Shown here in pieces: positions 31,398 to 49,918 of a stretch of DNA of 64,000 bases (positions are counted from its first letter, which is position 1; each line of letters opens with the position of its first letter). Source of the DNA: an uncultured Phycisphaeraceae bacterium (GTDB lineage: Bacteria > Planctomycetota > Phycisphaerae > UBA1845); the NCBI GenBank assembly GCA_964586145.1, contig CAZPHH010000009.1, forward strand, positions 5,912-69,911, in the 5' to 3' direction. Below the pieces are notes generated by a model. The model searched no databases, was not told the origin of the DNA, and worked only from the letters and a program-made list of their open reading frames with translations. Position numbers and translations under genes: made by a program.

Positions 31398-32195
31398 GTG
31401 ACTACGCGGGATCGTCAGACAGAGATGTCCGCCTACCTGGCCGAACACGGATACGCATCCATTTCTGACCTCATGGCCCGGTTTGCCATCTCGGAATCGA
31501 CCGCGCGCCGTGATCTGCAGGAGATGCAGCAACGGGGGCTCCTACGTCGGACGCGCGGCGGCGCCTACTACGTCGGGACTCGAGAGCATCCGCTGAGCTA
31601 CGCCATCCGGGAGGGCCGGTTCACCCGCGCGAAAGAGGAGATCGGGCGTGTGGTGGCCGAGATGGTGCGGGATGGCGACTCGCTGATTCTCGACGGCGGC
31701 ACGACGACGTATCAGGTCGCCCGGCGGCTGCGGGGGCGACCGTTGCAGGTGGTTACGAATTCTCTGCCCATCGCCAACCTCCTCGGGAATGCGCCCCAGA
31801 CCGAATTGGTCTTTCTCGGCGGCTACGTCATGCCGCAGGCGGGCGTCGCACTGGGACCGCACGCCGAGAACATGCTGCGCTCGCTCACCGTGCGGATGGC
31901 CATCATGGGGACGGCCGGCATCACCGAGGAGGGGCTGTTCAACTCGCATCTGCTGATGGTGGAAGTGGAACGGTTGATGATGCAATCGGCGGAAGAGGTC
32001 GTGATCGCGGTGGACCACTCGAAGTTCGGGCGCAAGTCCATGGCCAAGCTCTGCGAGCTGGGTGAATTCCGGCACCTCGTCAGCGATGACGGACTGGAGG
32101 CCCGCTGGGTGAACCTGCTGGAGTCGTGCGGCACGGAGGTTCGGCTCGCCTCCACGGCCGACGGCGAGGACGACGACCCGGGAGAAACGCCATGA
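31398..32195 (+). CDS. DeoR-family transcriptional regulator
   Basis: N-terminal wHTH (ISDLMARFAISESTARRDLQEM) and a C-terminal DeoR sugar-phosphate sensor domain (LILDGGTTT...VVTNS). GTG start. Confidence 0.85.
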   Translation: MTTRDRQTEMSAYLAEHGYASISDLMARFAISESTARRDLQEMQQRGLLRRTRGGAYYVGTREHPLSYAIREGRFTRAKEEIGRVVAEMVRDGDSLILDGGTTTYQVARRLRGRPLQVVTNSLPIANLLGNAPQTELVFLGGYVMPQAGVALGPHAENMLRSLTVRMAIMGTAGITEEGLFNSHLLMVEVERLMMQSAEEVVIAVDHSKFGRKSMAKLCELGEFRHLVSDDGLEARWVNLLESCGTEVRLASTADGEDDDPGETP

Positions 32196-32872
32196 CCCAG
32201 ACCGCCTCGCAGTCCAAGCCGGACCGGGCGCGGATTGAACGCATCGTGCGGGAAATCGTCGCGGACCGTTTCGAACCTCGGCACACGGCCGGCCCCTCGC
32301 AACTCGTTGTGAACATTTCAGCCCGCCACCTGCACATTTCGCAGGAACACCTGGAGCATTTGTTCGGTCCCGGTGCGGAGCTGACCCCGTTCAAGCCGCT
32401 GTATCAGACGGGAGAGTTTGCGAGCGACCAGACGGTGGACCTGGTGGGCCCGCGCCGACGCATCCTGGCCAACGTGCGGATTCTGGGGCCCGTCCGACCG
32501 GCCACACAGATTGAACTGGCTTTTACGGACGCGGTGGGACTGGGCATCGACGTGCCGGTTCGCATGAGCGGCAATCACGAGGGCACGCCCGGCTGCCTGG
32601 TGCTCGGTCCGGCGGGCCGGCTGGAACTGACCCAGGGGGTGATCCGCGCGCAGCGACACGTACACATGACCCCGAAGGACGCGGAGCATTACGGCGTCCA
32701 GGCGGGCGATTCCATGACCCTGATTGTCGAACACGCCACGTGCGCCACGACGCTGCAGGGTGTTATCGCCCGGGTGCATCCAAGCTTCAAGCTCGAGGTG
32801 CATATCGACACCGACGAAGGCAACTGCTGCAATCTGGCGCAGGCAACGCACATACGCCTGGTGAAGGCGTGA
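32192..32872 (+). CDS. pduL: phosphate acyltransferase PduL (PTAC) with N-terminal encapsulation-peptide-like helix
   Basis: Two PduL repeats (VNISARHLHISQEHLEHLFG and VIRAQRHVHMTPKDAEHYGV). N-terminal amphipathic RIERIVREIVADRF. ATGA overlap with deoR. Confidence 0.9.
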   Translation: MTQTASQSKPDRARIERIVREIVADRFEPRHTAGPSQLVVNISARHLHISQEHLEHLFGPGAELTPFKPLYQTGEFASDQTVDLVGPRRRILANVRILGPVRPATQIELAFTDAVGLGIDVPVRMSGNHEGTPGCLVLGPAGRLELTQGVIRAQRHVHMTPKDAEHYGVQAGDSMTLIVEHATCATTLQGVIARVHPSFKLEVHIDTDEGNCCNLAQATHIRLVKA

Positions 32873-32932: not shown

Positions 32933-33238
32933 ATGGCAACGATTCAGGCATTGGGAATGATCGAGACGAGGGGGCTGGTGGCCCTCTTCGAGGCATCCGA
33001 CGCCATGCTGAAGGCAGCCAGCGTGGAGATGCTTGGCTGGCGAAAGGTCGGACGCGGCATGGTCACCAGCTTCATCGCAGGCGACGTGGCCGCGGTGAAA
33101 TCGGCCGTGGCCGCAGGGGAAGCCGCCGCCGCCAAGGTGGGAGAAGTGGTGGCCGTGCATATCATTCCGCGGCCCCACGACGAGTTGTCGGGGCTGTATC
33201 CCGACCGCAGCAAGGTGAAGAAGGGCGCAGGCAAGTAG
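32933..33238 (+). CDS. BMC-H shell protein (PF00936-type hexamer), Arg in pore motif
   Basis: ALGMIETRGLVALFEASDAMLKAA...GDVAAVKSAV...IPRPH. The pore loop is KVGRGMV instead of the usual K-I-G-S-G. Confidence 0.93.
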   Translation: MATIQALGMIETRGLVALFEASDAMLKAASVEMLGWRKVGRGMVTSFIAGDVAAVKSAVAAGEAAAAKVGEVVAVHIIPRPHDELSGLYPDRSKVKKGAGK

Positions 33239-33323: not shown

Positions 33324-33593
33324 ATGGATCAGGCAATCGGACTGGTGGAGACCGTCGGCGCGAATCCGTCCATTCAGGCGGCGGACGCCATGTGCAAGGC
33401 GGCAAGCGTGACGTTGGTGGGCAGTGTGGAGATCGGCAGCGGGTACGTCACCACGATCGTTCGCGGTGACGTGGGCAGCGTGAAAGCCGCGGTGGATGCC
33501 GGGGCGGAAGCCGCCAATGCAGCCGGGGAGCTGGTCAGCGCCCACGTCATTCCGCAGCCGCACGAGGACCTGATGGCGGCGATGATGGGGTAG
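33324..33593 (+). CDS. BMC-H shell protein
   Basis: [24 protein letters not shown]...[22 protein letters not shown]...IPQPH. Confidence 0.93.
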
Positions 33594-33609: not shown

Positions 33610-34779
33610 ATGGAAACCATGAACGTACTGGTCGTCAACATCGGCAGCACGTCCTTCAAGTTCCGCCTGTTTGACATGGCGGACGAGACGGTCCTGGCGC
33701 GCGGCAGCGTGGAGGGCGTAGGCAAGCCCGATGCGGCGGTCACGATCCGCATCGGAGACGACCCGCCCGCGGTCACGCATCAGCCGGTGCCGGACCAGGC
33801 GGCAGCCGTCGCCATCTGCACGGGCGGACTGCCCTGCCGCATCGACGCGGTGGGCTTCAAGGCCGTGCATGGCGGATCGATCGCGGACCCGACGGTTGTG
33901 ACGTCTGACGTGCTGCGCGTGATGGAGGAGTTCGCGGACGCGGTGCCGGCGCACAACCCGCCGTACGTCGCCGCGATGCGGGCGTTTCAGACGCGGATGC
34001 CGGAGGTTCCCCTGGTGGCGGCGTTCGAGACGGGCTTCCACCAGACGATCCCACTCACGCGGACGACCTTCGCGGTTCCGCACGAGTGGCGGACGGAGTT
34101 CGGTGTCCGGCGTTACGGTTTCCACGGGGCCTCGCACCGGTACATCGCCGTACGGACCGCCGAACTGCTGGGCCGGCAGGACCTGCGGGTCCTCTCGTGC
34201 CACCTCGGCGGCAGCAGTTCCATCTGTGCCATCCGGGACGGTCGCAGCGTGGCCAACAGTTTCGGCATGACGCCCCAGTCGGGACTGCCGCAGAACAATC
34301 GCGTGGGCGATTTCGACGCGTACGCCATGCTGCTGGTCCGGGCCCGAACGGGAATGGACCTGGATGCGATGCTCACGGCCATGGCCGGTGAGGGCGGGCT
34401 TCTGGGCATCAGCAGGCTGACCAACGACATGCAGAAGTTGGTGGAGGCAGCCCAGGCCGGGCACGCGGGCGCGGAACTCGCCCTCGGCGTTTTCGTGGAA
34501 AGCGTACGGCATTTCATCGGGGCGTACCTGTTGGCGCTGGGCGGGCTGGACGTGCTCGTGTTCACCGGCGGCATCGGGGAACGATCGCCCGAGGTGCGGC
34601 GGCGGGTGTGCGCGGGCCTGGAGTTTGTGGGCATTCGGCTGGATCCCGCGCGGAATGAAAGGGGCGGCGTCGAGGCCACGGTATCGGCTGACGGCGCTCC
34701 CGTCCGCATCCTGGCGATGCAGACGAATGAGGAGTTGATCGTCGCCCGGCAGACGAAACAGGTGCTGGCGACGCGATGA
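33610..34779 (+). CDS. ackA: acetate/propionate kinase
   Basis: VLVVNIGSTSFKFRLF, HNPPY, FHGASH and VFTGGIGE motifs of the AckA family. No terminal extension. Confidence 0.9.
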   Translation: METMNVLVVNIGSTSFKFRLFDMADETVLARGSVEGVGKPDAAVTIRIGDDPPAVTHQPVPDQAAAVAICTGGLPCRIDAVGFKAVHGGSIADPTVVTSDVLRVMEEFADAVPAHNPPYVAAMRAFQTRMPEVPLVAAFETGFHQTIPLTRTTFAVPHEWRTEFGVRRYGFHGASHRYIAVRTAELLGRQDLRVLSCHLGGSSSICAIRDGRSVANSFGMTPQSGLPQNNRVGDFDAYAMLLVRARTGMDLDAMLTAMAGEGGLLGISRLTNDMQKLVEAAQAGHAGAELALGVFVESVRHFIGAYLLALGGLDVLVFTGGIGERSPEVRRRVCAGLEFVGIRLDPARNERGGVEATVSADGAPVRILAMQTNEELIVARQTKQVLATR

Positions 34780-34842: not shown

Positions 34843-35124
34843 ATGGTTATGGCAAGGCAGGCACTGGGCTTGATTGAAACGCGGGGCCTTATCCCGGCGG
34901 TGGAGGCCACGGACGTGGGGCTGAAGGCGGCAAACGTCACCTTCGCCGGCGCTCGTCAGACCGGTTCCGGATTGATCAGTATCAGTCTGGTGGGTGACGT
35001 GGCGGCAGTGCGAGCGGCCACAGAGGCCGGTGCTGCGGCGGCCGCACGCCTGGGGGAGGTGATCTCGGTCGAGGTGCTCTCGCGTCCGCACGACGAACTC
35101 GAAAAGATCATGCCGAAGAAGTAG
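34843..35124 (+). CDS. BMC-H shell protein
   Basis: ALGLIETRGLIPAVEATDVGLKAA...TGSGLISISLVGDVAAVRAA...LSRPH. Confidence 0.93.
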   Translation: MVMARQALGLIETRGLIPAVEATDVGLKAANVTFAGARQTGSGLISISLVGDVAAVRAATEAGAAAAARLGEVISVEVLSRPHDELEKIMPKK

Positions 35125-35155: not shown

Positions 35156-35479
35156 ATGTTCATCGGCAGAGTGACCGGCCACGTCGTGACCACGCAGAAG
35201 GAGCCGAGCATCGCCGAAGTGAAGCTGCTCGTGGTGGAGGCTTGCAACGTGGAGGGGCCCGGCGGCGCTGGGCTCAAGCCGACCGGGCGGGTACTCGTCG
35301 CGATCGACTCGCTCGGGGCAGGCGTGGGCGAATTCGTGCTGGTCACGCAGGGCAGCTCGGCCCGCATGACCGAACAGACCAAGACGATGCCTGTCGACGC
35401 GGTGGTGATCGGCATCATCGATGCGGTGCGGCTGCAGGAATGCGTGCTGCGGCGAGCGGACGGCACCCTCGGCGGGTGA
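35156..35479 (+). CDS. BMC-P vertex protein (EutN/CcmL family) 1
   Basis: MFIGRVTGHVVTTQK...LVAIDSLGAGVGEFVLVTQGSSAR is a typical PF03319 pattern. Confidence 0.9.
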   Translation: MFIGRVTGHVVTTQKEPSIAEVKLLVVEACNVEGPGGAGLKPTGRVLVAIDSLGAGVGEFVLVTQGSSARMTEQTKTMPVDAVVIGIIDAVRLQECVLRRADGTLGG

Positions 35480-35514: not shown

Positions 35515-36963
35515 ATGGCGACAACAGGCAGAAAGATGGATGAGACGCTGATCGCGGATGTGGTGAGCGCAGTGCTGGCCCGCCTGGGACCCGTTCCGGC
35601 GGTCCAGACGCCGCCCGCCAAGAGCGAGCCTTCTCCCGCCGGCCGGTTCGGCATCTTCCATGACGTCGACGCTGCGGTGAAGGCGGCCACCCAGGCCCAG
35701 CGCCAGTTGGCCGACGGCACCCTGGCCATGCGGGAAGCGGCCGTGGAGTGCATCCGCCACGTCATGCGACGCGACCGCGACGAACTCGCCCGCATCGAGT
35801 TTACTGAGACGAAGATGGGTCGTCTGCCCCACAAGCTCGCCAAACTCGACCTGGCGGCGACCGTCCCGGGCGTGGAAATGCTGCGCACCGAGGCCGTCAG
35901 CGGCGATCACGGGCTGACCATCACGGAATACGCCCCCTACGGCGTGATCGGCGTGGTGACCCCGGTCACGCACAGCATTCCCACGGTGGGATGCAACGCC
36001 ATCATGATGATCGCGGCCGGCAACAGCATGGTCTGCAACCCTCACCCCTCCGGGGCGAAGTGCGCCGTGGAGGCCGCCCGCCGGTTCAACCGAGAGATCG
36101 TACAGAGGATCGGAATCGACAATCTGATCTGCCTGATCGAGAACCCTACGCTGGAGAGCGCAGACCGCATCTTCCACCACCCCGGCATACGGATGCTCTG
36201 TGTGACGGGCGGACCCGGCGTGGCCAAGGCCGCGCTGGTGTCGGGCAAACGGGCTGTCGTGGCCGGTCCGGGCAACCCGCCGGTCGTGGTGGACGAGACG
36301 GCGGACATCGAGAAGGCCGCGGCGGGCATCATCGAGGGCGCCGCCTTTGATAACGACCTGCTCTGCATCGGCGAGAAGGAGGTCTTCGTAGTGCGGTCCG
36401 TGGCCGACGCCCTGATGGCCGCGATGGAACGTCACGGCGGGCACCGCCTGACACCGGCCGATCTGGACCGGCTGGCACAGGCCGTCCTCCACAAGGACGA
36501 GAAGACGGGCCACTACCATCCGAAGAAGGAATTCGTCGGGCAGGACCCGCAGGTGCTGGCCGAGACGATCGGCGTGCGGGTGGCGGCGGACGCACAGGTG
36601 CTGTTTGCCCAGACCACCGAAACCAATCCGTTCGTTCCGTGCGAGCAGATGATGCCCGTGCTGCCCATCGTTCCGGTGGCGGACGTGGACGAGGCCATTG
36701 CCAAGGCCGTGCACTACGAGCACGGATTCCGACACACGGTCATGATGTGGTCACGGAACGTGGACAACCTGACAAAAATGGGCAAGGCCAGTGACGCCAC
36801 CATCTTCGTGAAGAACGGCGCCTGCCCGGCCGGGCTGAGCGTCGGCGGCGAAGGATACGCCTCGTTTTCCATCGCCTCCCCCACGGGTGAAGGCGTCACC
36901 AGCCCGCTTTCGTTCACGCGGGCGAGGCGCTGCGTAATGGTGGACAATCTGCGCATCGTGTAA
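35515..36963 (+). CDS. CoA-acylating aldehyde dehydrogenase (PduP/EutE-like) with N-terminal encapsulation peptide
   Basis: N-terminal ETLIADVVSAVLARL helix plus a Pro-rich linker. ALDH core with catalytic-Cys context FDNDLLCIGEKE, as in BMC AldDHs. Confidence 0.9.
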   Translation: MATTGRKMDETLIADVVSAVLARLGPVPAVQTPPAKSEPSPAGRFGIFHDVDAAVKAATQAQRQLADGTLAMREAAVECIRHVMRRDRDELARIEFTETKMGRLPHKLAKLDLAATVPGVEMLRTEAVSGDHGLTITEYAPYGVIGVVTPVTHSIPTVGCNAIMMIAAGNSMVCNPHPSGAKCAVEAARRFNREIVQRIGIDNLICLIENPTLESADRIFHHPGIRMLCVTGGPGVAKAALVSGKRAVVAGPGNPPVVVDETADIEKAAAGIIEGAAFDNDLLCIGEKEVFVVRSVADALMAAMERHGGHRLTPADLDRLAQAVLHKDEKTGHYHPKKEFVGQDPQVLAETIGVRVAADAQVLFAQTTETNPFVPCEQMMPVLPIVPVADVDEAIAKAVHYEHGFRHTVMMWSRNVDNLTKMGKASDATIFVKNGACPAGLSVGGEGYASFSIASPTGEGVTSPLSFTRARRCVMVDNLRIV

Positions 36964-36980: not shown

Positions 36981-37250
36981 ATGCTGCTGGGCACCGTGGA
37001 AGGACATGCAACCTCGACCGTCAAGCACCGCTCGCTGCGCGGCGTGAAGCTCGTGCTGGTGCAGCCCGTGCGGTCGATGACCGCGGAGCCGGTGCTGGCC
37101 GTGGACCGCATCGGGACCGCCGTCGGAGACGTGGTGATGATTTCCAGCGACGGCAAAGGCACGCGGGAGTTCGTCGGCGACCCCACGTCCCCCGCCCGCT
37201 GGACGATCGTCGGGATCGTGGACAATACAAAGGACCTGGCATTGGCATGA
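36981..37250 (+). CDS. BMC-P vertex protein 2
   Basis: MLLGTVEGHATSTVKH...LVLVQPV...LAVDRIGTAVGDVVMISSDG. Confidence 0.9.
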   Translation: MLLGTVEGHATSTVKHRSLRGVKLVLVQPVRSMTAEPVLAVDRIGTAVGDVVMISSDGKGTREFVGDPTSPARWTIVGIVDNTKDLALA

Positions 37251-37879
37251 GCCGCCCGCTGATCACCGTCAAGACCCTGATCGCCCAGTCACGCGAGGGC
37301 GCGGCCATCAACCTGCCCGCCGACGCGATCATCACGCCGGCCGCACAGGACTGGCTGCAGGCCACCCGCCTGCCCGTGCGTCGAAACGGCCCCGGCGCCC
37401 GCGCCCCGGCGTCCAGCCCCACGGTATACCTGATCGGCGACGCCCAGGAGCCCACCCTGCAGACGCTGCTGCCTATTCTGGAGCGGCAGCACGAGTCGCT
37501 GACCTTCCTGCCCTGCCAGGGACACCTGGCCGGCTGTCTCGATGCGGTTCGCCGCATGTGCGACGGCCTTTCTCAGTGCTCGCAGCGCCGCGGCATCGTC
37601 GTCGTCCGAGCGGGGAGCATCGTGAGTTGCGTGGCGAATCGGAATCCCAAGGTGCGCGCGGCCGTTCTGACCCGGCCGTCGGACCTGTACGGCCTGCAGA
37701 CAAACCTGGACATCAACGTGTTGGTTCTGGAGCAGGAGCGGCTGTCGCTGCGGCAGATGCAGTCGAGCATCGAGACGTTCCTGAGAGGCAAGGGCTCCCT
37801 GCACCCCGCGGTGGAGGCGGCGTTGTCCGGGACTGCAACGGCCAGCGCAAGCTGCATCCCCTGCAACGGAGCGAAATGA
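37247..37879 (+). CDS. BMC-associated protein: EutQ-N-terminal-like segment fused to a degenerate RpiB/LacAB-like domain
   Basis: N-terminus RPLITVKTLIAQSREGAAINLPADAIITPAAQDWL resembles the EutQ N-terminal segment (from memory). The C-terminal half aligns by hand to RpiB (GIVVVRAGSIVSCVANRNPKVRAAVL...INVLVLE), but the catalytic Cys/Thr/His positions are substituted. ATGA overlaps at both ends. Confidence 0.6.
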   Translation: MSRPLITVKTLIAQSREGAAINLPADAIITPAAQDWLQATRLPVRRNGPGARAPASSPTVYLIGDAQEPTLQTLLPILERQHESLTFLPCQGHLAGCLDAVRRMCDGLSQCSQRRGIVVVRAGSIVSCVANRNPKVRAAVLTRPSDLYGLQTNLDINVLVLEQERLSLRQMQSSIETFLRGKGSLHPAVEAALSGTATASASCIPCNGAK

Positions 37880-38169
37880 CCATGCGCGTGGGAAACGTGA
37901 TCGGCACGGTGACTCTCTCGCAGCGACTCGAAAACGTGGCCGGCGGCCGGTTCCTGGTCGTGCAACCGCGCGGGCTGGCCTCGCTGCGTGACGGGTCGCC
38001 GAGCACCGCCGAGCCCATCGTGGCGTACGACGAGATCAGCGCGGGGATCGGGTCCGTCGTCTCGATATCCGAAGGTCGCGAAGCGGCCATGCCGTTCCAC
38101 CCGCGCCTGGTCCCCGTTGACGCGTACGTGGCGGCCGTCCTGGACCACGTGGAGGCCGGGCAGTCGTAA
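37876..38169 (+). CDS. BMC-P vertex protein 3
   Basis: MTMRVGNVIGTVTLSQR...FLVVQP...VAYDEISAGIGSVVSISEG. Lies inside a longer out-of-context track ORF (37558..38169). Confidence 0.9.
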   Translation: MTMRVGNVIGTVTLSQRLENVAGGRFLVVQPRGLASLRDGSPSTAEPIVAYDEISAGIGSVVSISEGREAAMPFHPRLVPVDAYVAAVLDHVEAGQS

Positions 38170-38188
38170 TTGAAGTGAGGCAACAACC

Positions 38189-39379
38189 ATGGCGACGAAA
38201 TCGCTCGACATCAAGCTGGCCCGAATCAAGGCCGACCGGAACTGCAGGGAGTTCATCATCGCGGACGCGAAGGATGCGGACATGGCGTACGGCATCGCGT
38301 CCCCGGGCAAGAGCCCGGAAATGCATGCCCACGAAGCCCGGTTCCGCGGCCTGGAAGACTATCGCGAGTGTATCCGGCAGGTCGTTCACCACGGCCGCGT
38401 CGACGTCATGCTGATGTCCGCCCATACGAACTCCATTCTCACCGTGCGCGAGAAGCTGTTCGAGAACTCCCACGTGACACCCGCCGCCCGGGCCAACGAC
38501 ACCACGGACATCCACGTGGCGCGCCAGGGCGTGTACACGGGCGAACCCTCCCGGCCATTCGAAAGCACGACGATCGATCACATCCAGTGCGGCTATATCG
38601 ACTGCCGGGAGGAGGACCGCGCGATCGGGGCCAACCTCGGGCTGTACAGCGTCACGTTCAACAACGACGTGGAGCTCGACCGGCAGACGATGGAGCGATA
38701 CAAGGCGTTTCGCATTGAGGCGGAGCGTAAGGGCTTCCGGCACTTCCTGGAGGTGTTTGACCCCAACAAACCACAGAACCCCATCGACCCGACCCAGCTC
38801 GGCGGATTCATCAACGATATGGTCGTGCGAATGCTCGCCGGCGTTCCCGACGCCGGCCGGCCCCTTTTCCTCAAGATGGTCTACCACGGCCCGAAGTTCA
38901 CCGAAGAGCTGGCCAATTACGATCCGAAGCTCGTGGTGGGCGTTCTGGGCGGGGCGTCCGGCACCACCTACGACGCGTTCAAGCTGATCGCCGAGGCACA
39001 GAAACACGGCGCCCGTGTCGCCCTCTTCGGCCGCAAGATCAACAACGCCGAACACCAGTTGGCCTTCGTCGAGATGCTTCGCCGCATCGTGGATGGCGAC
39101 CTCTCGCCGGAAGAAGCCGTCCACGCCTACCACGGCGTGCTCCAGGCCCTGAACATCCGCCCCCATCGCCCGCTGGAGGACGACCTGCAGCTCACGAACC
39201 CTGCCGTGGGCCACAGCGGCGGACACACCATCAGCCTGCCGCCCGCACGGCGTGACGGCGCCGCCCGCGCCCCCTCCGGCCGCAAACCCCGCACCCAGCC
39301 GGACTTCTCCAAGATGACCAGCGAGGAGCGTCTGGCCTACCATCGCGGTCGGCTCCGCGGGATCGGAACGTGGTCATGA
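38189..39379 (+). CDS. class I aldolase-like TIM-barrel protein (DeoC/LacD/FbaB family) with ~60-aa C-terminal extension
   Basis: Hand alignment to YihT/LacD-type aldolases: GFRHFLEVFDP ~ strand with Glu, PLFLKMVYHG ~ Schiff-base Lys strand, VVGVLGGASGT...ALFGRKI ~ phosphate-binding end. There is a disordered P/R-rich tail ending in a short helix. Confidence 0.65.
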   Translation: MATKSLDIKLARIKADRNCREFIIADAKDADMAYGIASPGKSPEMHAHEARFRGLEDYRECIRQVVHHGRVDVMLMSAHTNSILTVREKLFENSHVTPAARANDTTDIHVARQGVYTGEPSRPFESTTIDHIQCGYIDCREEDRAIGANLGLYSVTFNNDVELDRQTMERYKAFRIEAERKGFRHFLEVFDPNKPQNPIDPTQLGGFINDMVVRMLAGVPDAGRPLFLKMVYHGPKFTEELANYDPKLVVGVLGGASGTTYDAFKLIAEAQKHGARVALFGRKINNAEHQLAFVEMLRRIVDGDLSPEEAVHAYHGVLQALNIRPHRPLEDDLQLTNPAVGHSGGHTISLPPARRDGAARAPSGRKPRTQPDFSKMTSEERLAYHRGRLRGIGTWS

Positions 39380-40704
39380 CGACCCTCAGACTCGATACCT
39401 CGGGTCTGCTGGATCGCATCGCGGCCAACGGCGTCGTCGGGGCCGGCGGGGCCGGCTTCCCCACGCACGTGAAGCTGGCCGGCAAGGTGGACACGGTCAT
39501 TCTGAACGCCGCCGAGTGCGAGCCGCTGCTCCACAAGGACAAGGAAATGCTGCGGCGCTACCCGGAGCAGGTCCTGGCCGGTCTGGTCGCGGCAGGTGAA
39601 CTGACGGGCGCGCGGGAGGTCATCGTCGGCGTCAAGGGCAAGTACGCCGAAGTGATCCGCCAAGTGCGTCCTCTCATGCCGTCGCACGGCCGCGTCGTGC
39701 CTCTTGCTGACGCCTATCCGGCCGGGGACGAGTTTATCCTGGTCTACGACGTGACGGGCCGGATCATTCCGCCCGGCGCCATTCCGCCGGTGGTCGGATG
39801 TGCCGTCCTGAACGTGGAGACCGCATACAACATCGGTGCCGGAAAGCCCGTTACAGAGAAGTTCCTCACGGTCGCCGGCGCCGTGAAGCGGCCGGTGACG
39901 CTTCGGGTCCCGGTGGGAATTCGCCTCGCGGAGGCCATCGATCTGGCCGGTGGGGCCACCGTTGACGATGCCCGCGTCCTGATCGGCGGAGTCATGATGG
40001 GGCAGCTTGCCGCTTCGCTCGATGAGCCCGTGACCAAGACCTGCGGCGGGCTCATCGTGCTGGGGCCGGACCACATGCTCGTGCGGCGATACGAGAGCCC
40101 GTGGAAGGAAATCGCCCGCATCGGCGCCGGCGCCTGCGACCAGTGCACGTTCTGTACGGAATTCTGTCCGCGCTACCTGTTGGGCCACCCGATCGAGCCG
40201 CACAAGGCGATGCGGTCGCTCGGCTTCGTAGAGGATCGCGAGCCGACGGTCATCGGCACGCAGTTCTGCTGCGAGTGCAACCTCTGCACGATGATCGCCT
40301 GCCCGGAGGATCTGGACCCCAAGAACGTCTGTACGCACAACAAGCGCCGGCTCGCCGCTGAGGGCCGCCAGTGGAGGGTCGACGCCAATCCGGACCGCGC
40401 CCGATTGCACATGGACGACCGGCGCGTTCCGATCAGCCGGCTCATCCGGAAGCTCGGGCTGTCGCAGTTCACGAACGAAGGTCCGCTGGAAGAGCCGGGC
40501 TACCGACCGGCCCGCGTGGTTCTGCCCCTCAAGCAACATGCAGGCGCGCCGGCAGAGCCGGTTGTGTCTTCCGGGGCCCGCGTGCGCCTCGGCGACGTGG
40601 TGGCGCGTCCGCCGAAGGACGCGCTGGGCGCCGTGATCCACGCCACCATCGACGGGGTCTGTGAGGTGTCGAAAGGCCAGGTAATCATCGCGGCGGCCGG
40701 ATGA
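39376..40704 (+). CDS. PduS/RnfC-like flavo-iron-sulfur oxidoreductase
   Basis: GAGGAGFPTHVK nucleotide motif, SLBB-like middle, two ferredoxin motifs CDQCTFCTEFCP and CCECNLCTMIACP. The ATG at 39376 overlaps the aldolase stop (ATGA). Confidence 0.85.
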   Translation: MTTLRLDTSGLLDRIAANGVVGAGGAGFPTHVKLAGKVDTVILNAAECEPLLHKDKEMLRRYPEQVLAGLVAAGELTGAREVIVGVKGKYAEVIRQVRPLMPSHGRVVPLADAYPAGDEFILVYDVTGRIIPPGAIPPVVGCAVLNVETAYNIGAGKPVTEKFLTVAGAVKRPVTLRVPVGIRLAEAIDLAGGATVDDARVLIGGVMMGQLAASLDEPVTKTCGGLIVLGPDHMLVRRYESPWKEIARIGAGACDQCTFCTEFCPRYLLGHPIEPHKAMRSLGFVEDREPTVIGTQFCCECNLCTMIACPEDLDPKNVCTHNKRRLAAEGRQWRVDANPDRARLHMDDRRVPISRLIRKLGLSQFTNEGPLEEPGYRPARVVLPLKQHAGAPAEPVVSSGARVRLGDVVARPPKDALGAVIHATIDGVCEVSKGQVIIAAAG

Positions 40705-41300
40705 CGTTGGAGCAATCACACATGCTCGAATCCGTGGGAATCATCGAATTGACCAGCGTGGGCATCGGATACGTCGTGCAGGACGCCATGCTCAAGGCGG
40801 CGGACGTCCGGCTGGTCCTGGGCCGCACCATCTGCTCCGGCAAATACATCATCGCGGTCACCGGCCAGGTGGCGGCCGTCACGGCCGCCGTTGAGAATGG
40901 CCTGGAAGCGGCGCCGGATGGCGTCATCGATCACTGCATCATCCCGCGGATTCACCCGACCGTATTCCGGGCGCTGGGCGGCGGCGTGGAATTGCACGTG
41001 CCGCACGCCGGCGTGGACGCGGAACACCCGCCCAAGGCGCTCGGCGTCGTCGAGACGTTCTCCGGCGTCAGCGTATTGGAGGCAGCCGACGCCGCGGCAA
41101 AGGCCGCAAACGTCGCACTCTTCCGCATCCACATGGCCATGGCCCTGGGCGGCAAGGGCTACATGCTGATGGCCGGCACGGTGTCGGACGTGCAGGCGTC
41201 CGTTGCGGCCGCCGCGGAAATCGTACGCAGGAAGGGCCTCCTCGTCTCCGCCGTTACCATCCCCGGCCCCTCGCGCGAACTGTTCTCCGAATACCTGTAG
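40701..41300 (+). CDS. BMC-T tandem-domain shell protein (PduT-like, Fe-S pore Cys conserved)
   Basis: Two BMC domains. Aligns along its length to PduT, including the RTICSGKY context of the pore [4Fe-4S] cysteine. ATGA overlap with the PduS-like gene. Confidence 0.9.
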   Translation: MTLEQSHMLESVGIIELTSVGIGYVVQDAMLKAADVRLVLGRTICSGKYIIAVTGQVAAVTAAVENGLEAAPDGVIDHCIIPRIHPTVFRALGGGVELHVPHAGVDAEHPPKALGVVETFSGVSVLEAADAAAKAANVALFRIHMAMALGGKGYMLMAGTVSDVQASVAAAAEIVRRKGLLVSAVTIPGPSRELFSEYL

Positions 41301-43920: not shown

Positions 43921-44013
43921 GGTCGCTTCCCTCCATGGCGTCCGGGCTGTCGCCCGTCCTCGGTCGACTCAGGCCTGGCCACCAGCCGCCCGCAACGAGA
44001 GGTCTGCGCCCCC

Positions 44014-44679
44014 TTACTCGGCCGGCGCGTCGGCCCCGTTGGCGGCCTTGCCCTCGGCCCCGACCCGACTGGTCTTGACGCCTTTGCGGGTCATGGCTAC
44101 GGCGAACGCATAGCGGGCGTCGGCCCGGCGATGTCGCGCGGTCTTGGGCGAACGGGCCACGGGGCCCGGCCCCTTCTCCTCTCCAACCAGTTGAACGATC
44201 GCCTGGGGGCTGTGGTCGCCGATGCGCGGGCGGGCCACTCGAATGATCCGGGTGTATCCGCCGTTTCGGTCGGCATACCGGGGTGCGATGGTGTTGATCA
44301 GCCGATGCGTCACGGACTCGCCGGTGAAGGCAAGGCGACCGCGCGGCTGCCCCGTGCGGTGTCGGCGCCCGCTGCGATACCGCAGCGCTGCCTGACGCTT
44401 TGCATCGGGCATGCCGTCATACGCCTCCTGATGCTCGGCCGGAATCAAGGTGCGGTCCGACAGGAGCTTGTGAATCTGCCGACGGGCCGTCTGACTCCCG
44501 TTCTGGGCCTCCTTCGCCAGGGTGATGAGCTTCTCCGCAAACGGACGGATGTCCTTCGCCTTGGCCAGCGTGGTCTTCACCTCGCCGTGCTCGAGGAGGC
44601 TCTGGGCAAGGTTGCGCTGCATGGCCCGGCGATGCGCCGAGGTCCGGTTCAACTTCTTCTTGGATATACGGTGTCTCAT
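44014..44679 (-). CDS. rplQ: 50S ribosomal protein L17 (extended, 221 aa)
   Basis: MRHRISKKKLNRTSAHRRAMQRNLAQSL...TTLAKAKDIRPFAEKLITLAK. Has internal and C-terminal extra sequence relative to the 127-aa E. coli L17. Confidence 0.9.
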   Translation of the reverse strand: MRHRISKKKLNRTSAHRRAMQRNLAQSLLEHGEVKTTLAKAKDIRPFAEKLITLAKEAQNGSQTARRQIHKLLSDRTLIPAEHQEAYDGMPDAKRQAALRYRSGRRHRTGQPRGRLAFTGESVTHRLINTIAPRYADRNGGYTRIIRVARPRIGDHSPQAIVQLVGEEKGPGPVARSPKTARHRRADARYAFAVAMTRKGVKTSRVGAEGKAANGADAPAE

Positions 44680-44791
44680 GGTCCTCGACCGTCCACTTCA
44701 CGGAACCACGGCTGTCCGCTTCGCGGCCGACAGCCCTTGCGATATCTCTGACTACCTCCGAGCGGGCAGACGCGCCATTCCGGCGCGGGCC

Positions 44792-45880
44792 TCACACACT
44801 CTCCAGAGGTTCCTGCTCCATACCACTGCCGATGCCCTCGGTGTCCGATTCGCTCAGCCCGGCGCCGGGGGGCAAACCCTCCGGCCGCCCGCCGCCGATG
44901 CTCATGCCCAGCGTCAGGCCAAGGTCCGCCAGCTTGCGTCGCACCTCCCGCAGGGACGTCTTGCCGAAGCTGCGTACGCGGAGCAGGTCGGCCTCCGTCT
45001 TGCGGATGAGCTCGCCGATCGTGGCCACCCGCGCCGACTCCAGGCAGTTGCTCGCCCGAACGGAAAGCTCCAAATCCGCGATGGGGCGAGCCAGGGTGGC
45101 CTGCATTTCGGAATCCAGCCGCTCCTCGATCACCGGACGGTGCGGCGTCTCGGTCACGACATCGTGCCCGAGCTCGTAGTACTGGACAAACGGGTTGAGG
45201 TGCTTGCGGAGGATCTTGGCCGCCTCCACCACCGCATCCTCCGGAAGCAGCGTCCCGCGCGTCCAGACTTCGAGAATCAGCCGGTCGTAGTTCGTGCGCT
45301 GTCCGACACGCGTGTCCTCCGTCCGGTATCGCACCCGCACCACGGGCGAAAAGACCGAATCGACCGGAATCACGCCAAGCTGCTGCTCCGGGCCCTCGTT
45401 CTCCTCGGCCGGCCGGTATCCTCGGCCCTTTCCGACCGTCATCTCCATCTCGAAGGGCACATCGTCTGTGAGCGTGCAAAGGAGCTGGTCCTGGTTGACG
45501 ATCTCGGCACCGGCTTCGGCCTCGATCGCCGAAGCGCGGATCTCGCCCGCCTTCGAGGCCGCGACCCGCATCGTTTTGACTGTCTCCTCGTCTCCCTCCA
45601 CCTGCACGACCAGGCTCTTGACGTTCAGGATGATGTCGGTCACGTCCTCCAGCACGCCGGGCAGGGAGGTGAACTCGTGCGACGCCCCCGTAATTTTTAC
45701 GGCGGTCACCGCCGCGCCCTCCAGGCTCGACAGGAGAATCCGCCGGAGGGAGTTGCCCACCGTCGTCCCGAACCCTCGCTCGAACGGTTCAATAATGAAC
45801 CGTCCATATGTGGGCGTGCATACCGTCTCATCCTTGACAACCCGGCTCGGCAGTTCCAACCCTCGCCACCTGATACGCAT
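44792..45880 (-). CDS. rpoA: DNA-directed RNA polymerase subunit alpha
   Basis: YGRFIIEPFERGFGTTVGNSLRRILLSS and the C-terminal domain ELSVRASNCL. ATG 45880 follows GGAGGAG. Confidence 0.92.
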   Translation of the reverse strand: MRIRWRGLELPSRVVKDETVCTPTYGRFIIEPFERGFGTTVGNSLRRILLSSLEGAAVTAVKITGASHEFTSLPGVLEDVTDIILNVKSLVVQVEGDEETVKTMRVAASKAGEIRASAIEAEAGAEIVNQDQLLCTLTDDVPFEMEMTVGKGRGYRPAEENEGPEQQLGVIPVDSVFSPVVRVRYRTEDTRVGQRTNYDRLILEVWTRGTLLPEDAVVEAAKILRKHLNPFVQYYELGHDVVTETPHRPVIEERLDSEMQATLARPIADLELSVRASNCLESARVATIGELIRKTEADLLRVRSFGKTSLREVRRKLADLGLTLGMSIGGGRPEGLPPGAGLSESDTEGIGSGMEQEPLESV

Positions 45881-45962
45881 CGACTTGATCTCCTCCGCGG
45901 GGTTACATCGATGAATCGCGGTCCGGCTCGTCACAGGCCGCAGGCCCGTCTCACCGGCGGGC

Positions 45963-46598
45963 CTAGCGGCTGCACATTTCCACGATCAGTTGCGTCTGCA
46001 CCGCAGGCACCTGGGCGTCCTCGGGGCCGGGCAGCGCCACCACCTGCGCCTCCAGCCGGTTCACGTCCAGACTCAGCCACGGCTGCACCTGCGGCGTCCC
46101 CTCGCCGAGAGTCGCGCGGATGAACTTCTGACTGCTTTCCGTCGGCCGCGCGCCGATCTTGTCTCCCACGGACACCAGGTATCCCGGACGGTTCACTTTG
46201 CGACCGTTCACGTGGATGTGACCGTGCCCGATGACCTGCCGCGCCGACCGGCGCGACGGGGCAAATCCCAGCTTATGCACGACGTTGTCCAAACGGCGCT
46301 CCACGGTGATCAGCAGCGCGTCGCCCGTGTTGATGCGGGCCCGCTCCGCCATCCGGAAGTACACCATGAATTGCCGCTCCAGAAGCCCGTAGTACCGTTT
46401 GAACTTCTGCTTCTCCCGAAGCCGCACGCCGTAGGAACTCGCCTGACGCCGCCGGCGGAACGCATGCATGCCCGGCGGGAAGTTCCGCCACTGCCGCTCC
46501 AGCGGGCACTTGGCCGTCTCACAGCGCACACCCTTGAGGTGAAGCTTCTTGCCCTCTCGCCGACATTGCCGGCACGCCGGCCCCAGATATCGTCCCAT
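45963..46598 (-). CDS. rpsD: 30S ribosomal protein S4
   Basis: MGRYLGPACRQCRREGKKLHLKG...RLDNVV...S4 domain. First 35 codons of the track ORF rejected. Confidence 0.92.
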   Translation of the reverse strand: MGRYLGPACRQCRREGKKLHLKGVRCETAKCPLERQWRNFPPGMHAFRRRRQASSYGVRLREKQKFKRYYGLLERQFMVYFRMAERARINTGDALLITVERRLDNVVHKLGFAPSRRSARQVIGHGHIHVNGRKVNRPGYLVSVGDKIGARPTESSQKFIRATLGEGTPQVQPWLSLDVNRLEAQVVALPGPEDAQVPAVQTQLIVEMCSR

Positions 46599-46672
46599 GA
46601 CTGCTCGCCTGATCCAATCGTTCGTTTCCGTCCCGATTCCGCGGTCGGCACCCGGCCGCCGCGTGGACGGGC

Positions 46673-47059
46673 CTAGACCCGCCGCCGCTTCGCCGGTCGG
46701 CATCCATTGTGCGGCAAAGGAGTTACATCTTCAATAGACTGAATATTCATCCCCGCCGCCTGCAGGGCCGTGATCGCCGACTCACGGCCGGACCCCGGCC
46801 CCTTCACCCGGACCTCCAACTCCACGATGCCGTACTTCTTGGCCGCCTGGGCCGCCTGCTCCGCCGCACGCTGGGCCGCGAAGGGCGTGCTCTTGCGCGT
46901 CCCCTTGAATCCCACCGTGCCCGCGGACGACCAGCACAGCACCTCGCCGCTCAGGTCGGTGATGGTCACCATGGTGTTGTTGAACGTGGCCTTGATATGG
47001 GCGATCCCCCGGGCCACGCTACGACGCGTTTTTCGCTTGCCGGATGCCTTCTTAGCCAC
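46673..47059 (-). CDS. rpsK: 30S ribosomal protein S11
   Basis: [18 protein letters not shown]...TPFAAQ...[15 protein letters not shown] start overlaps the rpsM stop. Confidence 0.93.
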
Positions 47060-47441
47060 GATGCAACTCCTTCACACCCTTCTTGCCGGCCACCGTCTTG
47101 CGCGGGCCTTTTCGCGTTCGGGCGTTCGTTCGCGTCCGCTGCCCCCGGGTGGGCAGACCCCGGCGGTGCCGCATGCCCCGGTAGCACCGGATGTCCCGCA
47201 GACGCGCGATGTTCGCGTTGACGATCCGACGGAGCTGGCCTTCCACCTGGTAGTTCCGGTCGATCACCGACGCCACTCGCGAAATCTCGTCTTCGGTGAG
47301 GTTCTTCGCTCGCACCGCGGGGTCAATGCCGGCCTCCTTGCACACCTGCACGGCGGTATGCGGACCCACCCCGTAGATGTACGTCAGTGCGATCCGAAGC
47401 TGCTTGTCATTCGGAATGTCAACGCCTGCTACACGTGGCAC
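47052..47441 (-). CDS. rpsM: 30S ribosomal protein S13
   Basis: [26 protein letters not shown]...[22 protein letters not shown] start after AAGGAGA. Confidence 0.93.
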
Positions 47442-47460
47442 GCCTGGTCTCCTTCGCCGG

Positions 47461-47574
47461 TCAACCCTGACGCTGCTTGTGACGCGGATTCGTACAGATC
47501 ACCCGCACCACACCCTTTCGCTTGACAATTCGGCAGTTCTCACAGATCCGCCGAACACTCGCTCGAACCTTCAT
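47461..47574 (-). CDS. rpmJ: 50S ribosomal protein L36
   Basis: [41 protein letters not shown] overlap with the map stop. Confidence 0.92.
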
Positions 47575-48422
47575 CTCGATCCCTGCCTTTCGACACCCGG
47601 CGACCACCCCGGCTCGGTCCGTCCGTCGCTCAGCACGTCCGAACCCGATGCAGTGACCGCAACGGTGTGCTCGAAATGCGCAGACGGCCTGCCGTCCCGC
47701 GTCACCACCGTCCAACTGTCCGACGTCGCCTTCGTCTCATGCGTTCCCAGGTTGACCATCGGTTCGATGGCCAGCACCAGGCCCGGCTCCAGCCGGAAAT
47801 CCTCGCTACGGCGCTGCCCGTCCCAGTAGTTCGGGACCTTCGGCTCCTCGTGCATCTGCCGGCCGATCCCGTGCCCCACAAAATCCCGCACGACCGACAG
47901 GTTCTGCCCCTCCACGTACGCCTGCATGGCCCGGGCCACCTCGCTCCAACAGCGGCCGGGCCGAATTTCCTGGACGGCCAGGGTCAGCGCCTCTTCGGTC
48001 ACCCGCAACAGGTGCTCCGCTTCCGCCGACACTCGCCCGACGCCCAGCGTCACCGCGGCGTCGCCGCAGTATCCCTTCAGCCGCACGCCGCAATCGATGC
48101 TGACGATGTCTCCTTCGATCAGCACCCGGTCACCCGGAATGCCGTGGACAATCTGCTCGTTCACGCTGATGCACAGCGCCGCGGGGAACGGGAAACGGGC
48201 CTGCGGATTGACCACCCCCTTGAACAGGGGCGCCGCCCCGCACTCCGCAATGATCTCCTCCGCATGCCGATTCAGGGCGCCCGTCACGACGCCCGGCTTC
48301 ACCAGCCCCCGCATCTCCTCCAGCACGCGGTACACCACCGCGTTCGCCCGACGCATCAACTCGATCTCTCGCCGGCTCTTCAGCACAATCCCGCCGGGCA
48401 CCGGTCGACTGCTTCCCATCAT
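47571..48422 (-). CDS. map: type I methionine aminopeptidase
   Basis: Metal ligand contexts [21 protein letters not shown] and FEHTV. Confidence 0.92.
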
Positions 48423-48488
48423 CTCCGCTTGCCTTCCGGTTCCGGACGCCGCGTCCGCAACCGCCCGCCGGCCGACATGGCCCGGCGA

Positions 48489-49859
48489 CTACCCCCGGCC
48501 TCCCTTGATCGTGCCCTCGCCACCCAGGAACCCCTGGTAGTTCCGCATGATGAGGTTTGCCTCGATCCGCTGCACCAAATCCAGGGCCACGCTCACCACG
48601 ATCAGCAGGCCCGTCCCGCCCAGGAACGCGGACACGAAGAACGGGATCTCGAGCCAGGCCGCCACCACGGTCGGAATGATCGCGATCAGGGCCAGGAAGC
48701 CCGCACCCACGTACGTGATCCGCCCCATCACCTTCTCCAGGTAGTCCGCGGTCCGCTTGCCGGGCCGCAGGCCCGGGATGAAGCTGCCGTAATCCCGCAG
48801 GTTGTTCGCCATCTCCTTGGGCTGGAACTGCACCGTGGTCCAGAAATACGCGAAGAAGTACACCATCGCCACGTACGTCACCACGTACACATAACTGCCC
48901 GTGCTGAACCACACCGCCAGCTTGTTGAAGAACCCGCCCGCATACCAGACGCTGTGGAACCAGTTGAAGATCATCCGCGGGAAGATCAGCAACGAACTGG
49001 CGAAGATGATCGGCATCACGCCGCCGTGGTTCACCCGCAGCGGCAGATACTGCCGCTGCCCGCCGTACACCCGCCGACCCCGCGTCTGCTTAGCCTGCTG
49101 GATGGGAATCCGGCGCTGACCCTGCGTGATCAGAATGGCCCCCGCCACCACGGCCACAAACGCCACGATCAGGAACAGGATCTTCTGCGGCCCCATCGTG
49201 CCCGCCGCGCTCGCCGTCACGCGAAGGTCGGCGGTCTGTGCCACGTAGATCACGGCCATCGGCATGTTGGCGAGAATCCCCGCCATGATGATCAGGGAAA
49301 TCCCGTTGCCGATCCCGTACTCGTCGATCTGCTCCCCCAGCCACATCAGGAACACGGTCCCGGTGGTCAGGGCCGCCACCGCGACCAGAAGGTAGAACGG
49401 ACTCTCGCGAAAGTCCGCGTAGATGAAACTCTGCTGCCCCGTTCCGGACCGCAGGAACTTCAGCCAGATGATGGCCTGAATCACGCAGAGAAGCACCGTG
49501 GCGTACCGCGTGTACTCCTGGATCTTCTTGCGCCCGGACTCGCCTTCGCGCTGCAGTTTCTCCAGGGCCGGCACCACCGTGACCAGAAGCTGGAAAATAA
49601 TGGACGCCGAGATGTAGGGCATGATGCCCAGCCCGAAGATCGTGCTCTGGCTCAGGTTTCCGCCCGTGAAGATGGCGAAGTACTGCGCCAGTTCTCCCAG
49701 CGGCCCGCCCCCTTCGGCGATGGAACTCATCGCCTCCTGGTTCACGCCCGGAAGGGGCACGGCGAACCCCAGCCGATAGATCATGAGCAGACCCAGAGTG
49801 AAGAGCAGCTTGTTCCGCAACTCCGGGATCTTGAAGATGTTGATGAATGTTCGGAACAT
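48489..49859 (-). CDS. secY: preprotein translocase subunit SecY
   Basis: MFRTFINIFKIPELRNKLLFTLGLL...10-TM SecY core. Syntenic after rplO. Confidence 0.93.
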   Translation of the reverse strand: MFRTFINIFKIPELRNKLLFTLGLLMIYRLGFAVPLPGVNQEAMSSIAEGGGPLGELAQYFAIFTGGNLSQSTIFGLGIMPYISASIIFQLLVTVVPALEKLQREGESGRKKIQEYTRYATVLLCVIQAIIWLKFLRSGTGQQSFIYADFRESPFYLLVAVAALTTGTVFLMWLGEQIDEYGIGNGISLIIMAGILANMPMAVIYVAQTADLRVTASAAGTMGPQKILFLIVAFVAVVAGAILITQGQRRIPIQQAKQTRGRRVYGGQRQYLPLRVNHGGVMPIIFASSLLIFPRMIFNWFHSVWYAGGFFNKLAVWFSTGSYVYVVTYVAMVYFFAYFWTTVQFQPKEMANNLRDYGSFIPGLRPGKRTADYLEKVMGRITYVGAGFLALIAIIPTVVAAWLEIPFFVSAFLGGTGLLIVVSVALDLVQRIEANLIMRNYQGFLGGEGTIKGGRG

Positions 49860-49918
49860 GGCCTCCCACGTCCTGCCGACCCGCCGGCCGGCCTGATCCG
49901 GGCCCTACGGCCCACCCT

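Follow-up and report, generated by a model that had tools for sequence, protein, structure and literature searches.

Which enzyme supplies the aldehyde to a bacterial microcompartment (BMC) whose operon holds no class II aldolase? We address this question for an operon in a 64,000-nucleotide stretch of DNA from an uncultured Phycisphaeraceae bacterium (contig CAZPHH010000009.1; hereafter the window, meaning the whole stretch), and in particular for one of its genes, the target gene, whose product a preliminary description had put forward as a class I aldolase and candidate signature enzyme ending in a possible encapsulation peptide (EP). We find that this protein is a member of a new, unnamed family inside a known aldolase superfamily, and on balance we favor the view of an active enzyme that cleaves a sugar phosphate through a Schiff base and is in physical association with the organelle. 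The locus that encodes it is a new variant of the PVM type of microcompartment (named for Planctomycetes/Verrucomicrobia). The gene and the two elements of its product that matter most here are as follows:

38189..39379, + strand: target gene, class I aldolase-fold protein of 396 aa (barrel core ~1-340, disordered linker 341-370, C-terminal motif 371-394)
38873..38875, + strand: codon of K229, the candidate Schiff-base lysine (FLK, strand 6), from the model strand, the LsrF alignment and invariance
39299..39370, + strand: conserved C-terminal motif PDFSKMTSEERLAYHRGRLRGIGT, residues 371-394, helix predicted at 378-389

The open reading frame (ORF) lies exactly where the preliminary description had placed it. 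A Shine-Dalgarno-like GTGAGG sits 8 nt 5′ of the ATG, the start falls 19 nt past the stop of a gene for a pentameric shell protein (BMC-P), and the stop shares ATGA with the start of the next gene, which encodes a PduS-like protein; the short upstream gap and the downstream overlap leave the gene tightly embedded in the operon. Homologs of the protein fill more than 8000 clusters at 90% identity, so the target is not a chance ORF; the best 120 are 61-97% identical to it, and at 50% identity the family comprises 1105 representatives. All homologs among the matches listed are named ‘hypothetical protein’, and none carries a Pfam domain. An antisense ORF of 435 aa (38036..39343, − strand) spans the target gene; homology gives it no support, and it is the usual by-product of 66% G+C DNA.

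The target is predicted to be a TIM barrel of the class I aldolase superfamily

Four sequence motifs on which the preliminary description had based its alignment are all present, HFLEVFDP at residues 185-192, PLFLKMVYHG at 225-234, GVLGGASGT at 251-259 and LFGRKI at 279-284, and they fall on predicted strands 5, 6, 7 and 8, respectively. In an AlphaFold2 model that drew on 56 homologs (mean pLDDT 79, pTM 0.78), strands at residues 23-26, 73-77, 97-101, 150-156, 185-190, 228-230, 250-253 and 277-279 alternate with helices, and the fold of the modeled protein is an eight-stranded TIM barrel. When the model was compared with the PDB by Foldseek, the top 50 matches were all LacD, ADH synthase, LsrF, archaeal fructose-bisphosphate (FBP) aldolase or sulfohexulose-1-phosphate aldolase, with a probability of 1.00 throughout and identities of 9-18%. 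The best E-values belonged to the tagatose-bisphosphate aldolase LacD (2e-8), and the Thermoproteus tenax class I FBP aldolase reached a TM-score of 0.75 normalized to the target.

Sequence comparison reaches the same superfamily from a greater distance. The preliminary description had expected a match to PF01791 and had treated its absence as a reason to abandon the assignment; on this formal point the expectation failed, as the Pfam scan of the target returned no family at E ≤ 1, PF01791 and PF00596 included. Ten relatives were likewise unmatched by PF01791 at E ≤ 0.1, eight of them matching no Pfam family and the other two, which are fusion proteins, matching PfkB alone. PDB sequence searches with the single target protein and with a profile of close homologs returned no match, and only a deliberately diverse profile succeeded: a hidden Markov model (HMM) from a 30-sequence alignment with members down to 34% identity (relatives at 34-50% included) found LsrF at E 2.2e-4 and the Methanocaldococcus jannaschii ADH synthase MJ0400 at E 5.5e-3, pairing LGG...GRKI of the target with AGG...GRNI of both. 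Because the family HMM reaches LsrF and ADH synthase significantly, we attribute the missing PF01791 match to insensitivity of the Pfam model. NCBIfam gave sub-threshold partial matches on the target, over residues 250-314, to ADH synthase (E 7e-5), LsrF and archaeal class I FBP aldolase. By hhalign, a 162-sequence family alignment matched the LsrF profile at 72% probability and E 3.4e-5, and when a longer alignment was forced the significant core stayed at residues 248-314; against single Escherichia coli YihT, LsrF, FbaB and DeoC sequences the family reached a probability of at most 1.4%.

Model, Foldseek and diverse HMM together place the target with the DhnA/LsrF/LacD/YihT-type barrels, which bears out the preliminary assignment to a YihT/LacD-type class I fold. 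The fold and the conserved lysine described below are thus supported, and formal Pfam membership in PF01791 is not. With the DhnA type (E. coli LsrF, MJ0400 and archaeal FBP aldolase, members of PF01791) the target has in common the TIM barrel, the GG of strand 7, the GR(K/N) of strand 8 and the lysine motif of strand 6. It differs from them in being only 13-18% identical and unmatched by PF01791, in its C-terminal tail, in a barrel ~60-70 residues longer with insertions at residues 36-52 and 105-150, and in a family-specific DAKDADM motif and RANDTTD loop. LacD and the YihT-type sulfofructose/sulfohexulose-1-phosphate aldolases are 9-13% identical to the target, with TM-scores of 0.43-0.53, and give no significant sequence match.

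Two other identities were rejected. A class II aldolase (FucA/adducin, PF00596) is incompatible with the TIM-barrel fold and the missing Pfam match, as the preliminary description had also held. Deoxyribose-phosphate aldolase (DERA) was set aside on an hhalign probability of 0.2% against E. coli DeoC, the absence of DERA from the top 50 Foldseek matches, and an extension that is C-terminal.

A conserved lysine and phosphate-binding loops outline a candidate active site

The preliminary description had pointed to a candidate Schiff-base lysine in PLFLKMVYHG, and K229 fills this position well, the catalytic role being a prediction from sequence and model. K229 lies within model strand 6 (228-230) and stands opposite K203 of LsrF in the hhalign comparison, a pairing that comes from extension of the alignment outside its solid core at residues 248-314. 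The surrounding segment, FLKMVY, resembles IIKTYY of LsrF, both following the pattern hydrophobic-hydrophobic-K-x-x-Y. We take LsrF K203 to be the Schiff-base lysine of that enzyme.

No variation is seen in 84 of 84 tailed homologs, which are 58-97% identical, at K229 or at 19 further candidate active-site positions, among them D26, K28, D29, D31, D72, R101, N103, D104, T156, N159, E188, Y232, G254, G255, G281, R282 and E288. K229, E188, G254/G255 and G281/R282 are also invariant in the diverse 30-sequence alignment. On strands 7 and 8, LGG (254-255) and GRK (281-283) match AGG and GRN of LsrF and MJ0400 (E 2e-4 and 5e-3). The nearest structural relatives hold a phosphate of the dihydroxyacetone phosphate (DHAP) type through the loops of these two strands. 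Further parallels are the Asp at the end of strand 1 (LAFD in LsrF, IIAD26 in the target, compared by eye) and, from a local alignment with weak support, E159 of YihT (SIIE) against E188 of the target (FLEV).

The strand 6 lysine has been lost in three distant relatives, P0167, P0216 and P0162, where FTL, VLF or FVE replaces FLK. P0167 and P0216 still end in the same kind of tail (DPDFDxMTxEEKLxYNQ.RRDRIFG), and P0162 is tail-less; P0216 (L175:10001-11221) lies outside microcompartment loci and adjoins a sigma-54 activator. These three proteins may be catalytically dead paralogs.

Relatives outside microcompartments are paired with PfkB kinases

Tail-less relatives from an exhaustive search of representatives led to 80 non-BMC loci in species-representative genomes, from Alphaproteobacteria (Inquilinus, Pleomorphomonas, Paracoccus, Kaistia, Labrys and Roseiarcus), Opitutaceae and other Verrucomicrobia, Anaeromyxobacter and Solirubrobacterales. 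At none of the 80 was a gene for a shell protein, aldehyde dehydrogenase (AldDH), PduL, PduS or the RpiB-like protein found within 10 kb. A PfkB-family kinase gene lies directly downstream on the same strand in 59 of them, at a median gap of ~28 bp, and in two (L057 and L064) the aldolase-fold protein, N-terminal and tail-less, is fused in frame to a C-terminal PfkB domain; the representative search yielded two more such fusions, P0123 and P0201. Frequent neighbors are an ABC sugar-transporter ATPase, an RbsB-like binding protein and a permease (22-23 loci each), followed by a ribulokinase-like FGGY kinase (16 loci) and DeoR regulators (14 loci).

This arrangement recalls YihV/YihT of E. coli, and also LacC/LacD, in which the aldolase likewise adjoins a PfkB kinase. 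It also recalls IolC-DUF2090 (NCBIfam NF047869), a PfkB kinase fused to a class I aldolase-like barrel, whereas the domain order in the target family is reversed, with the aldolase N-terminal, and the target is unmatched by NF047869. The partner kinases had their best NCBIfam matches in IolC-type and ribokinase models, far below cutoff, and fell into no characterized subfamily; for the class II aldolase (see below) and the binding protein of the transporter, too, the matches were all sub-threshold and generic. The substrate therefore cannot be inferred from these partners, in keeping with the caution of the preliminary description that it could not be read from the sequence.

A conserved C-terminal tail accompanies the family in microcompartment loci

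In 56 homologs compared, the core gives way near residue 345 to a P/A/S-rich linker, ~10-90 residues long, and the linker in turn to a conserved terminal motif. In the model, pLDDT drops below 50 at residues 341-368 and a helix is predicted at 378-389, so that the layout proposed earlier, a linker plus a short C-terminal helix, holds for the target and is conserved among its homologs. The motif, from 78 homologs, reads P-D-F-x-[KR]-M-[TS]-x-x-[EQ]-[RK]-L-A-[YW]-[HND]-x-x-R-[LW]-x-R-x-[FL]-G. It is present, with few exceptions, in a set of 85 Planctomycetota-type homologs, and among orthologs in BMC loci, where its absence would have spoken against the earlier proposal, essentially all have it. 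The motif occurs in 0 of the 80 homologs outside BMC loci; 76 of these stop within 18 residues of the core, and the other four comprise two kinase fusions and two proteins with unrelated short ends (28 and 78 residues).

A neighbor-joining tree of the barrel region groups all tailed proteins in one clade, with a tail-less Planctomycetota-type protein as nearest outgroup. The closest tail-less relative (from L173) is 51% identical to the target, has a Planctomycetota metagenome-assembled genome in its cluster, and lies outside any BMC locus, where it adjoins a PfkB kinase gene amid genes for a sulfatase, UxaC and an esterase. Because a Planctomycetota-type relative outside BMC loci lacks the tail, the tail is not simply a phylum trait, and its interpretation as a mark of lineage rather than of the microcompartment could be ruled out.

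Whether the tail is an EP, as the preliminary description had suggested, has a divided answer. A terminal helix behind a variable linker is present, and the tail is found on BMC-associated homologs and absent from non-BMC ones, with the caveat that six tailed genes lie away from shell genes; the helix, however, is basic, non-amphipathic and unique to the family. We read the tail as a specific docking motif, and from the sequence comparisons targeting is its likeliest purpose.

Several observations weigh against this reading. The hydrophobic moment of the tail over 11 residues is 0.34, a value reached by 96% of shuffled sequences, so the helix is not amphipathic, and its net charge is positive. 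Textbook amphipathic EPs do occur in the same operon, on AldDH (MDETLIADVVSAVLARLG, followed by a P/A linker) and on PduL (RARIERIVREIVADRF), and in a related locus, L090, the EP of a class II aldolase (EADVERLVQEITDRIVATM) has a moment of 0.76, reached by 2% of shuffles. All 76 occurrences of the motif in ~1.1 Mb of related loci are C-termini of the target family, which rules out an EP common to several cargo proteins. The earliest-branching clade of tailed proteins falls among the six tailed genes that have no shell gene within 10 kb.

The same observations, namely the low moment and positive charge so unlike the operon’s own EPs, the confinement of the motif to one family and the position of the earliest-branching tailed clade away from shell genes, would fit a different explanation, in which the tail is an oligomerization or regulatory element, or a peptide that docks onto a partner such as the RpiB-like pseudo-isomerase of this operon, and its link to microcompartments is historical. 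It would also accord with the sugar phosphate utilization (SPU) microcompartment, where the ‘RPI’ protein complexes with DERA (PMC11585597). We find this explanation somewhat doubtful: none of the 80 non-BMC homologs has the tail, nor does the nearest outgroup, a variable linker before a short terminal helix is exactly the layout of an EP, and the stand-alone tailed genes may belong to satellite loci, one of them directly preceding an AldDH gene.

That gene (L122:10001-12638) falls outside the basal clade, is directly followed by AldDH (PF00171), and has no shell genes within 10 kb; the pair may be a satellite module of a BMC encoded elsewhere. Within the basal clade, a stand-alone tailed gene is directly followed by a PfkB kinase gene. 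A 3-keto-disaccharide hydrolase (PF06439) is encoded near a stand-alone tailed homolog (L153:9049-9891), and another near the tail-less Planctomycetota-type homolog of L173 (5018-6370), with a sulfatase and UxaC nearby; these neighbors may hint at a sugar pathway feeding the enzyme.

The operon is a PVM variant that carries the target and lacks the PVM signature enzyme

The genes of the operon, from the DeoR gene to the gene for a tandem-domain shell protein (BMC-T), all lie on the + strand, and Pfam and NCBIfam annotation identifies the neighbors of the target as follows (BMC-H, shell protein; BMC-P, shell pentamer):

31398..32195, + strand: DeoR-family regulator, operon head, conserved in syntenic loci
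32126..32872, + strand: PduL-type phosphotransacylase (PF06130) with the N-terminal amphipathic EP
32933..33238, + strand: BMC-H shell protein
33324..33593, + strand: BMC-H shell protein
33610..34779, + strand: acetate/acyl kinase (PF00871)
34843..35124, + strand: BMC-H shell protein
35156..35479, + strand: BMC-P, first of three
35515..36963, + strand: acylating AldDH (NF011927, 612 bits) with the N-terminal EP and P/A linker
36981..37250, + strand: BMC-P, second
37247..37879, + strand: RpiB-like protein, matched weakly by PF02502 (33 bits)
37882..38169, + strand: BMC-P, third (PF03319 at residues 109-196 of a longer ORF, 37558-38169)
39376..40704, + strand: PduS/RnfC-like flavo-iron-sulfur protein, start overlapping the target stop (ATGA)
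40701..41300, + strand: tandem-domain BMC-T shell protein, best NCBIfam match PduT type

An identical target protein is found on 12 metagenome contigs with the gene order unchanged. The complete Phycisphaerales genome CP070691.1 keeps this order as well, and so do two further assemblies, with orthologs at 68-71% identity.

Most of this order is that of a PVM locus: DeoR, phosphotransacylase, two BMC-H, acyl kinase, BMC-H, BMC-P, AldDH, BMC-P, a small flavodoxin-like protein (at whose position the window has the RpiB-like protein) and BMC-P. The window differs in having neither PvmN, the PF00596 aldolase that is the PVM signature, nor the Ldh-like PvmO; at their positions it has the target, the PduS-like protein and the PduT-like trimer. 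Phycisphaeraceae loci are filed as ‘PVM (main)’ in the trees of the BMC catalog (Sutter 2021, PMC8217296), where the table gives PvmL, at the position of the RpiB-like protein, as a PF02441 flavoprotein, and the HMM table of that catalog has no entry for the target protein. In recent taxonomic papers Phycisphaerae loci are simply labeled PVM and interpreted as organelles for L-sugars, and our full-text literature searches found no class I aldolase-like protein or second aldolase described in PVM loci.

A second likeness is to SPU microcompartments, whose signature pair is DERA with ‘RPI’ (pfam01791 and pfam02502; Sutter 2021, PMC8217296; Dwyer 2024, PMC11585597). The operon of the target also interleaves an aldolase-fold gene and a degenerate RpiB-like gene with BMC-P genes, and has AldDH, PduL, PduS and BMC-T. 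For SPU ‘RPI’, PMC11585597 describes Cys66 as replaced, isomerase activity as negligible and the protein as complexing with SPU DERA. The RpiB-like protein of the window parallels it in its degenerate catalytic residues, as it has none of Cys66, Thr68 and His99 of E. coli RpiB; judged by its sequence it is probably not an isomerase and looks like a pseudo-isomerase, and it has a conserved N-terminal extension of ~45 residues (MSRPLITVKTLxAQ...ALITPAAxDWL). SPU DERA, in contrast to the target, is clearly PF01791/DeoC with a D102/K167/K201 triad and an N-terminal extension of ~70 residues; in the window PF02502 is matched weakly, and the aldolase partner is neither PF01791 nor DERA, with its extension at the C-terminus.

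Most related loci also encode a class II aldolase, and the window-type loci do not

We fetched 80 metagenomic loci, classified them by tblastn, and counted the 35 with at least 8 kb of upstream sequence, in a sample seeded with type II (class-II-aldolase-type) sequence. Shell genes together with a PF00596-type class II aldolase, 17-2583 bp upstream of the target homolog on the same strand, occur in 25 of the 35; four (the window, L008, L089 and L091) have shell genes and PduS without a class II aldolase, and a shorter locus, L097, is of this window type too; the remaining six have a tailed gene and no shell genes within 10 kb.

No class II aldolase was detected by tblastn with a PvmN-type query in the 64-kb window (38 kb upstream and 25 kb downstream of the target; best E 0.97), or within the sequence available for the five window-type loci, in which PvmO was also not found. 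All window-type loci have the pair of PduS and PduT-type BMC-T, whereas among the class-II-aldolase loci PduS was detected in L114 only and BMC-T in L102 only. In the tree, the window-type proteins fall together in one subclade, which has a class-II-aldolase group as its sister and is nested among groups of that kind; the stand-alone genes make up the earliest-branching tailed clade. That the window-type loci form one clade suggests a stable arrangement, not an assembly gap. Because its subclade lacks PvmN, we consider the target the only candidate aldehyde generator of the window’s derived lineage, as far as the 64-kb window and the available sequence of the window-type loci reach.

Against this stands the arrangement in most related loci: in 25 of the 29 shell-containing loci, a proportion biased by the class-II-aldolase-type seed, the target homolog sits just downstream of a PvmN-type class II aldolase, and given this co-occurrence it is possible that such an aldolase is encoded elsewhere in the source genome. 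The designation of signature enzyme in the preliminary description is therefore only partly borne out. The operon encodes no aldolase-like protein other than the target, and the window holds no class II aldolase. Taken over the whole family, however, the protein is an additional enzyme and not the defining one, since 25 of 29 shell loci also have the class II enzyme. A simple replacement of PvmN by a class I aldolase, as a general rule, was refuted by L090, where a tailed homolog lies just downstream of the PF00596 aldolase in a locus without PduS and BMC-T, and by 24 more loci with both enzymes.

An explanation built on these loci would make the target an accessory enzyme, the aldehyde coming from a class II fuculose- or rhamnulose-1-phosphate aldolase encoded elsewhere in the genome and the target handling, inside the organelle or at it, a second substrate or a by-product such as DHAP. 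The close upstream position of the PF00596-type gene in the 25 loci speaks for it, as does the textbook C-terminal EP that the class II aldolase bears of its own. We regard it as rather unlikely for the window, as no class II aldolase was detected in the 64-kb window or in the sequence available for the other window-type loci, all of one clade, and the 25 of 29 figure is biased by the type II seed.

A proposed role for the target in aldehyde production

The reading we prefer, of an active sugar-phosphate lyase associated with the organelle, can be set out as a sequence of steps. Judged by gene context, the ancestral form was a protein of ~330 aa paired with a PfkB sugar kinase, adjacent or fused, and often encoded beside an ABC sugar transporter; the kinase would make a phosphosugar and the aldolase-fold enzyme would split it. 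One Planctomycetota clade gained the disordered linker and the 24-residue basic motif and entered PVM-type BMC operons. In the enzyme, K229 on strand 6 would react with a ketose phosphate at its keto group to give a Schiff base, and the phosphate would be held by G254-G255 in the strand 7 loop and G281-R282-K283 in the strand 8 loop, with E188 (strand 5) or D26 (strand 1) as acid/base. Retro-aldol cleavage would release DHAP or a related triose unit and a short aldehyde; we prefer DHAP-releasing cleavage of a ketose-1-phosphate. The aldehyde would be captured inside the shell by the EP-bearing acylating AldDH and passed on to PduL and the acyl kinase, and the PduS-like protein together with the PduT-like shell trimer would provide the route by which NAD+ is regenerated. 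The tail would draw the enzyme to the organelle through a specific contact and not as a generic amphipathic helix.

The chemistry could instead be that of a Schiff-base enzyme that is no plain aldolase, either an LsrF-like thiolase, which would transfer an acyl group to CoA and release DHAP, or an ADH-synthase-like transaldolase. The only significant sequence matches of the family are to LsrF and ADH synthase, neither a plain retro-aldolase, and a CoA-dependent reaction would suit a CoA-recycling organelle. We nevertheless judge this improbable, because the similarity does not extend beyond strands 7-8, which are generic phosphate-binding elements, true aldolases (LacD) take the best Foldseek E-values, and the pairing with PfkB in free-living relatives is the classic kinase-aldolase arrangement. 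A catalytically dead scaffold that keeps the aldolase fold, for which one could cite the lysine losses in the tailed P0167 and P0216 and the tail-less P0162 and the pseudo-enzyme character of the neighboring RpiB-like protein, is highly implausible, since the invariance of the candidate catalytic and phosphate-binding residues in 84 of 84 tailed homologs at 58-97% identity indicates an active site under selection.

A bolder form of the preferred reading would see an overlooked family of kinase-coupled aldolases that has become the sole signature enzyme in a Phycisphaerae subclade, defining a functionally distinct organelle with another sugar-phosphate substrate, redox recycling based on PduS/PduT, and cargo recruited through a new basic, sequence-specific C-terminal signal in place of an amphipathic EP; this we put forward tentatively and think rather unlikely.

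What a BMC does is deduced from its signature enzyme, and it is routine to label Phycisphaerae loci ‘PVM’ and to interpret them as fucose/rhamnose organelles. A conserved, tailed aldolase-fold protein has sat unnamed in PVM-type loci all the while, and the loci of one subclade have no class II aldolase, so functional calls for these abundant environmental bacteria may be wrong or incomplete. As the kinase-aldolase cassette is present in cultured Alphaproteobacteria, among them Inquilinus ginsengisoli, Pleomorphomonas koreensis, Paracoccus litorisediminis and Kaistia soli (L016, L018, L025 and L027), the chemistry of the family is open to direct tests in organisms that are easy to handle. Should the tail prove to be a targeting signal, the notion of an EP would have to be broadened, and a new engineering tag would be at hand.

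Other features of the window

At the head of the operon, the longest ORF for PduL (GTG at 32126) overlaps the DeoR gene by 70 nt, and its first residues are rich in Arg and Gly. The gene calls on identical contigs give a PduL of 226 aa, 22 residues less, from an internal ATG with a 4-nt overlap with the DeoR stop, and the start listed above is therefore probably too far upstream.

Downstream of the locus, the GC skew at ~44000-62000 is strong and persistently negative (−0.08 to −0.20). Identical contigs carry genes for L17, RpoA, S4, S11, S13, methionine aminopeptidase and SecY downstream of the locus, all on the minus strand, so this region is probably a ribosomal-protein cluster read in reverse.

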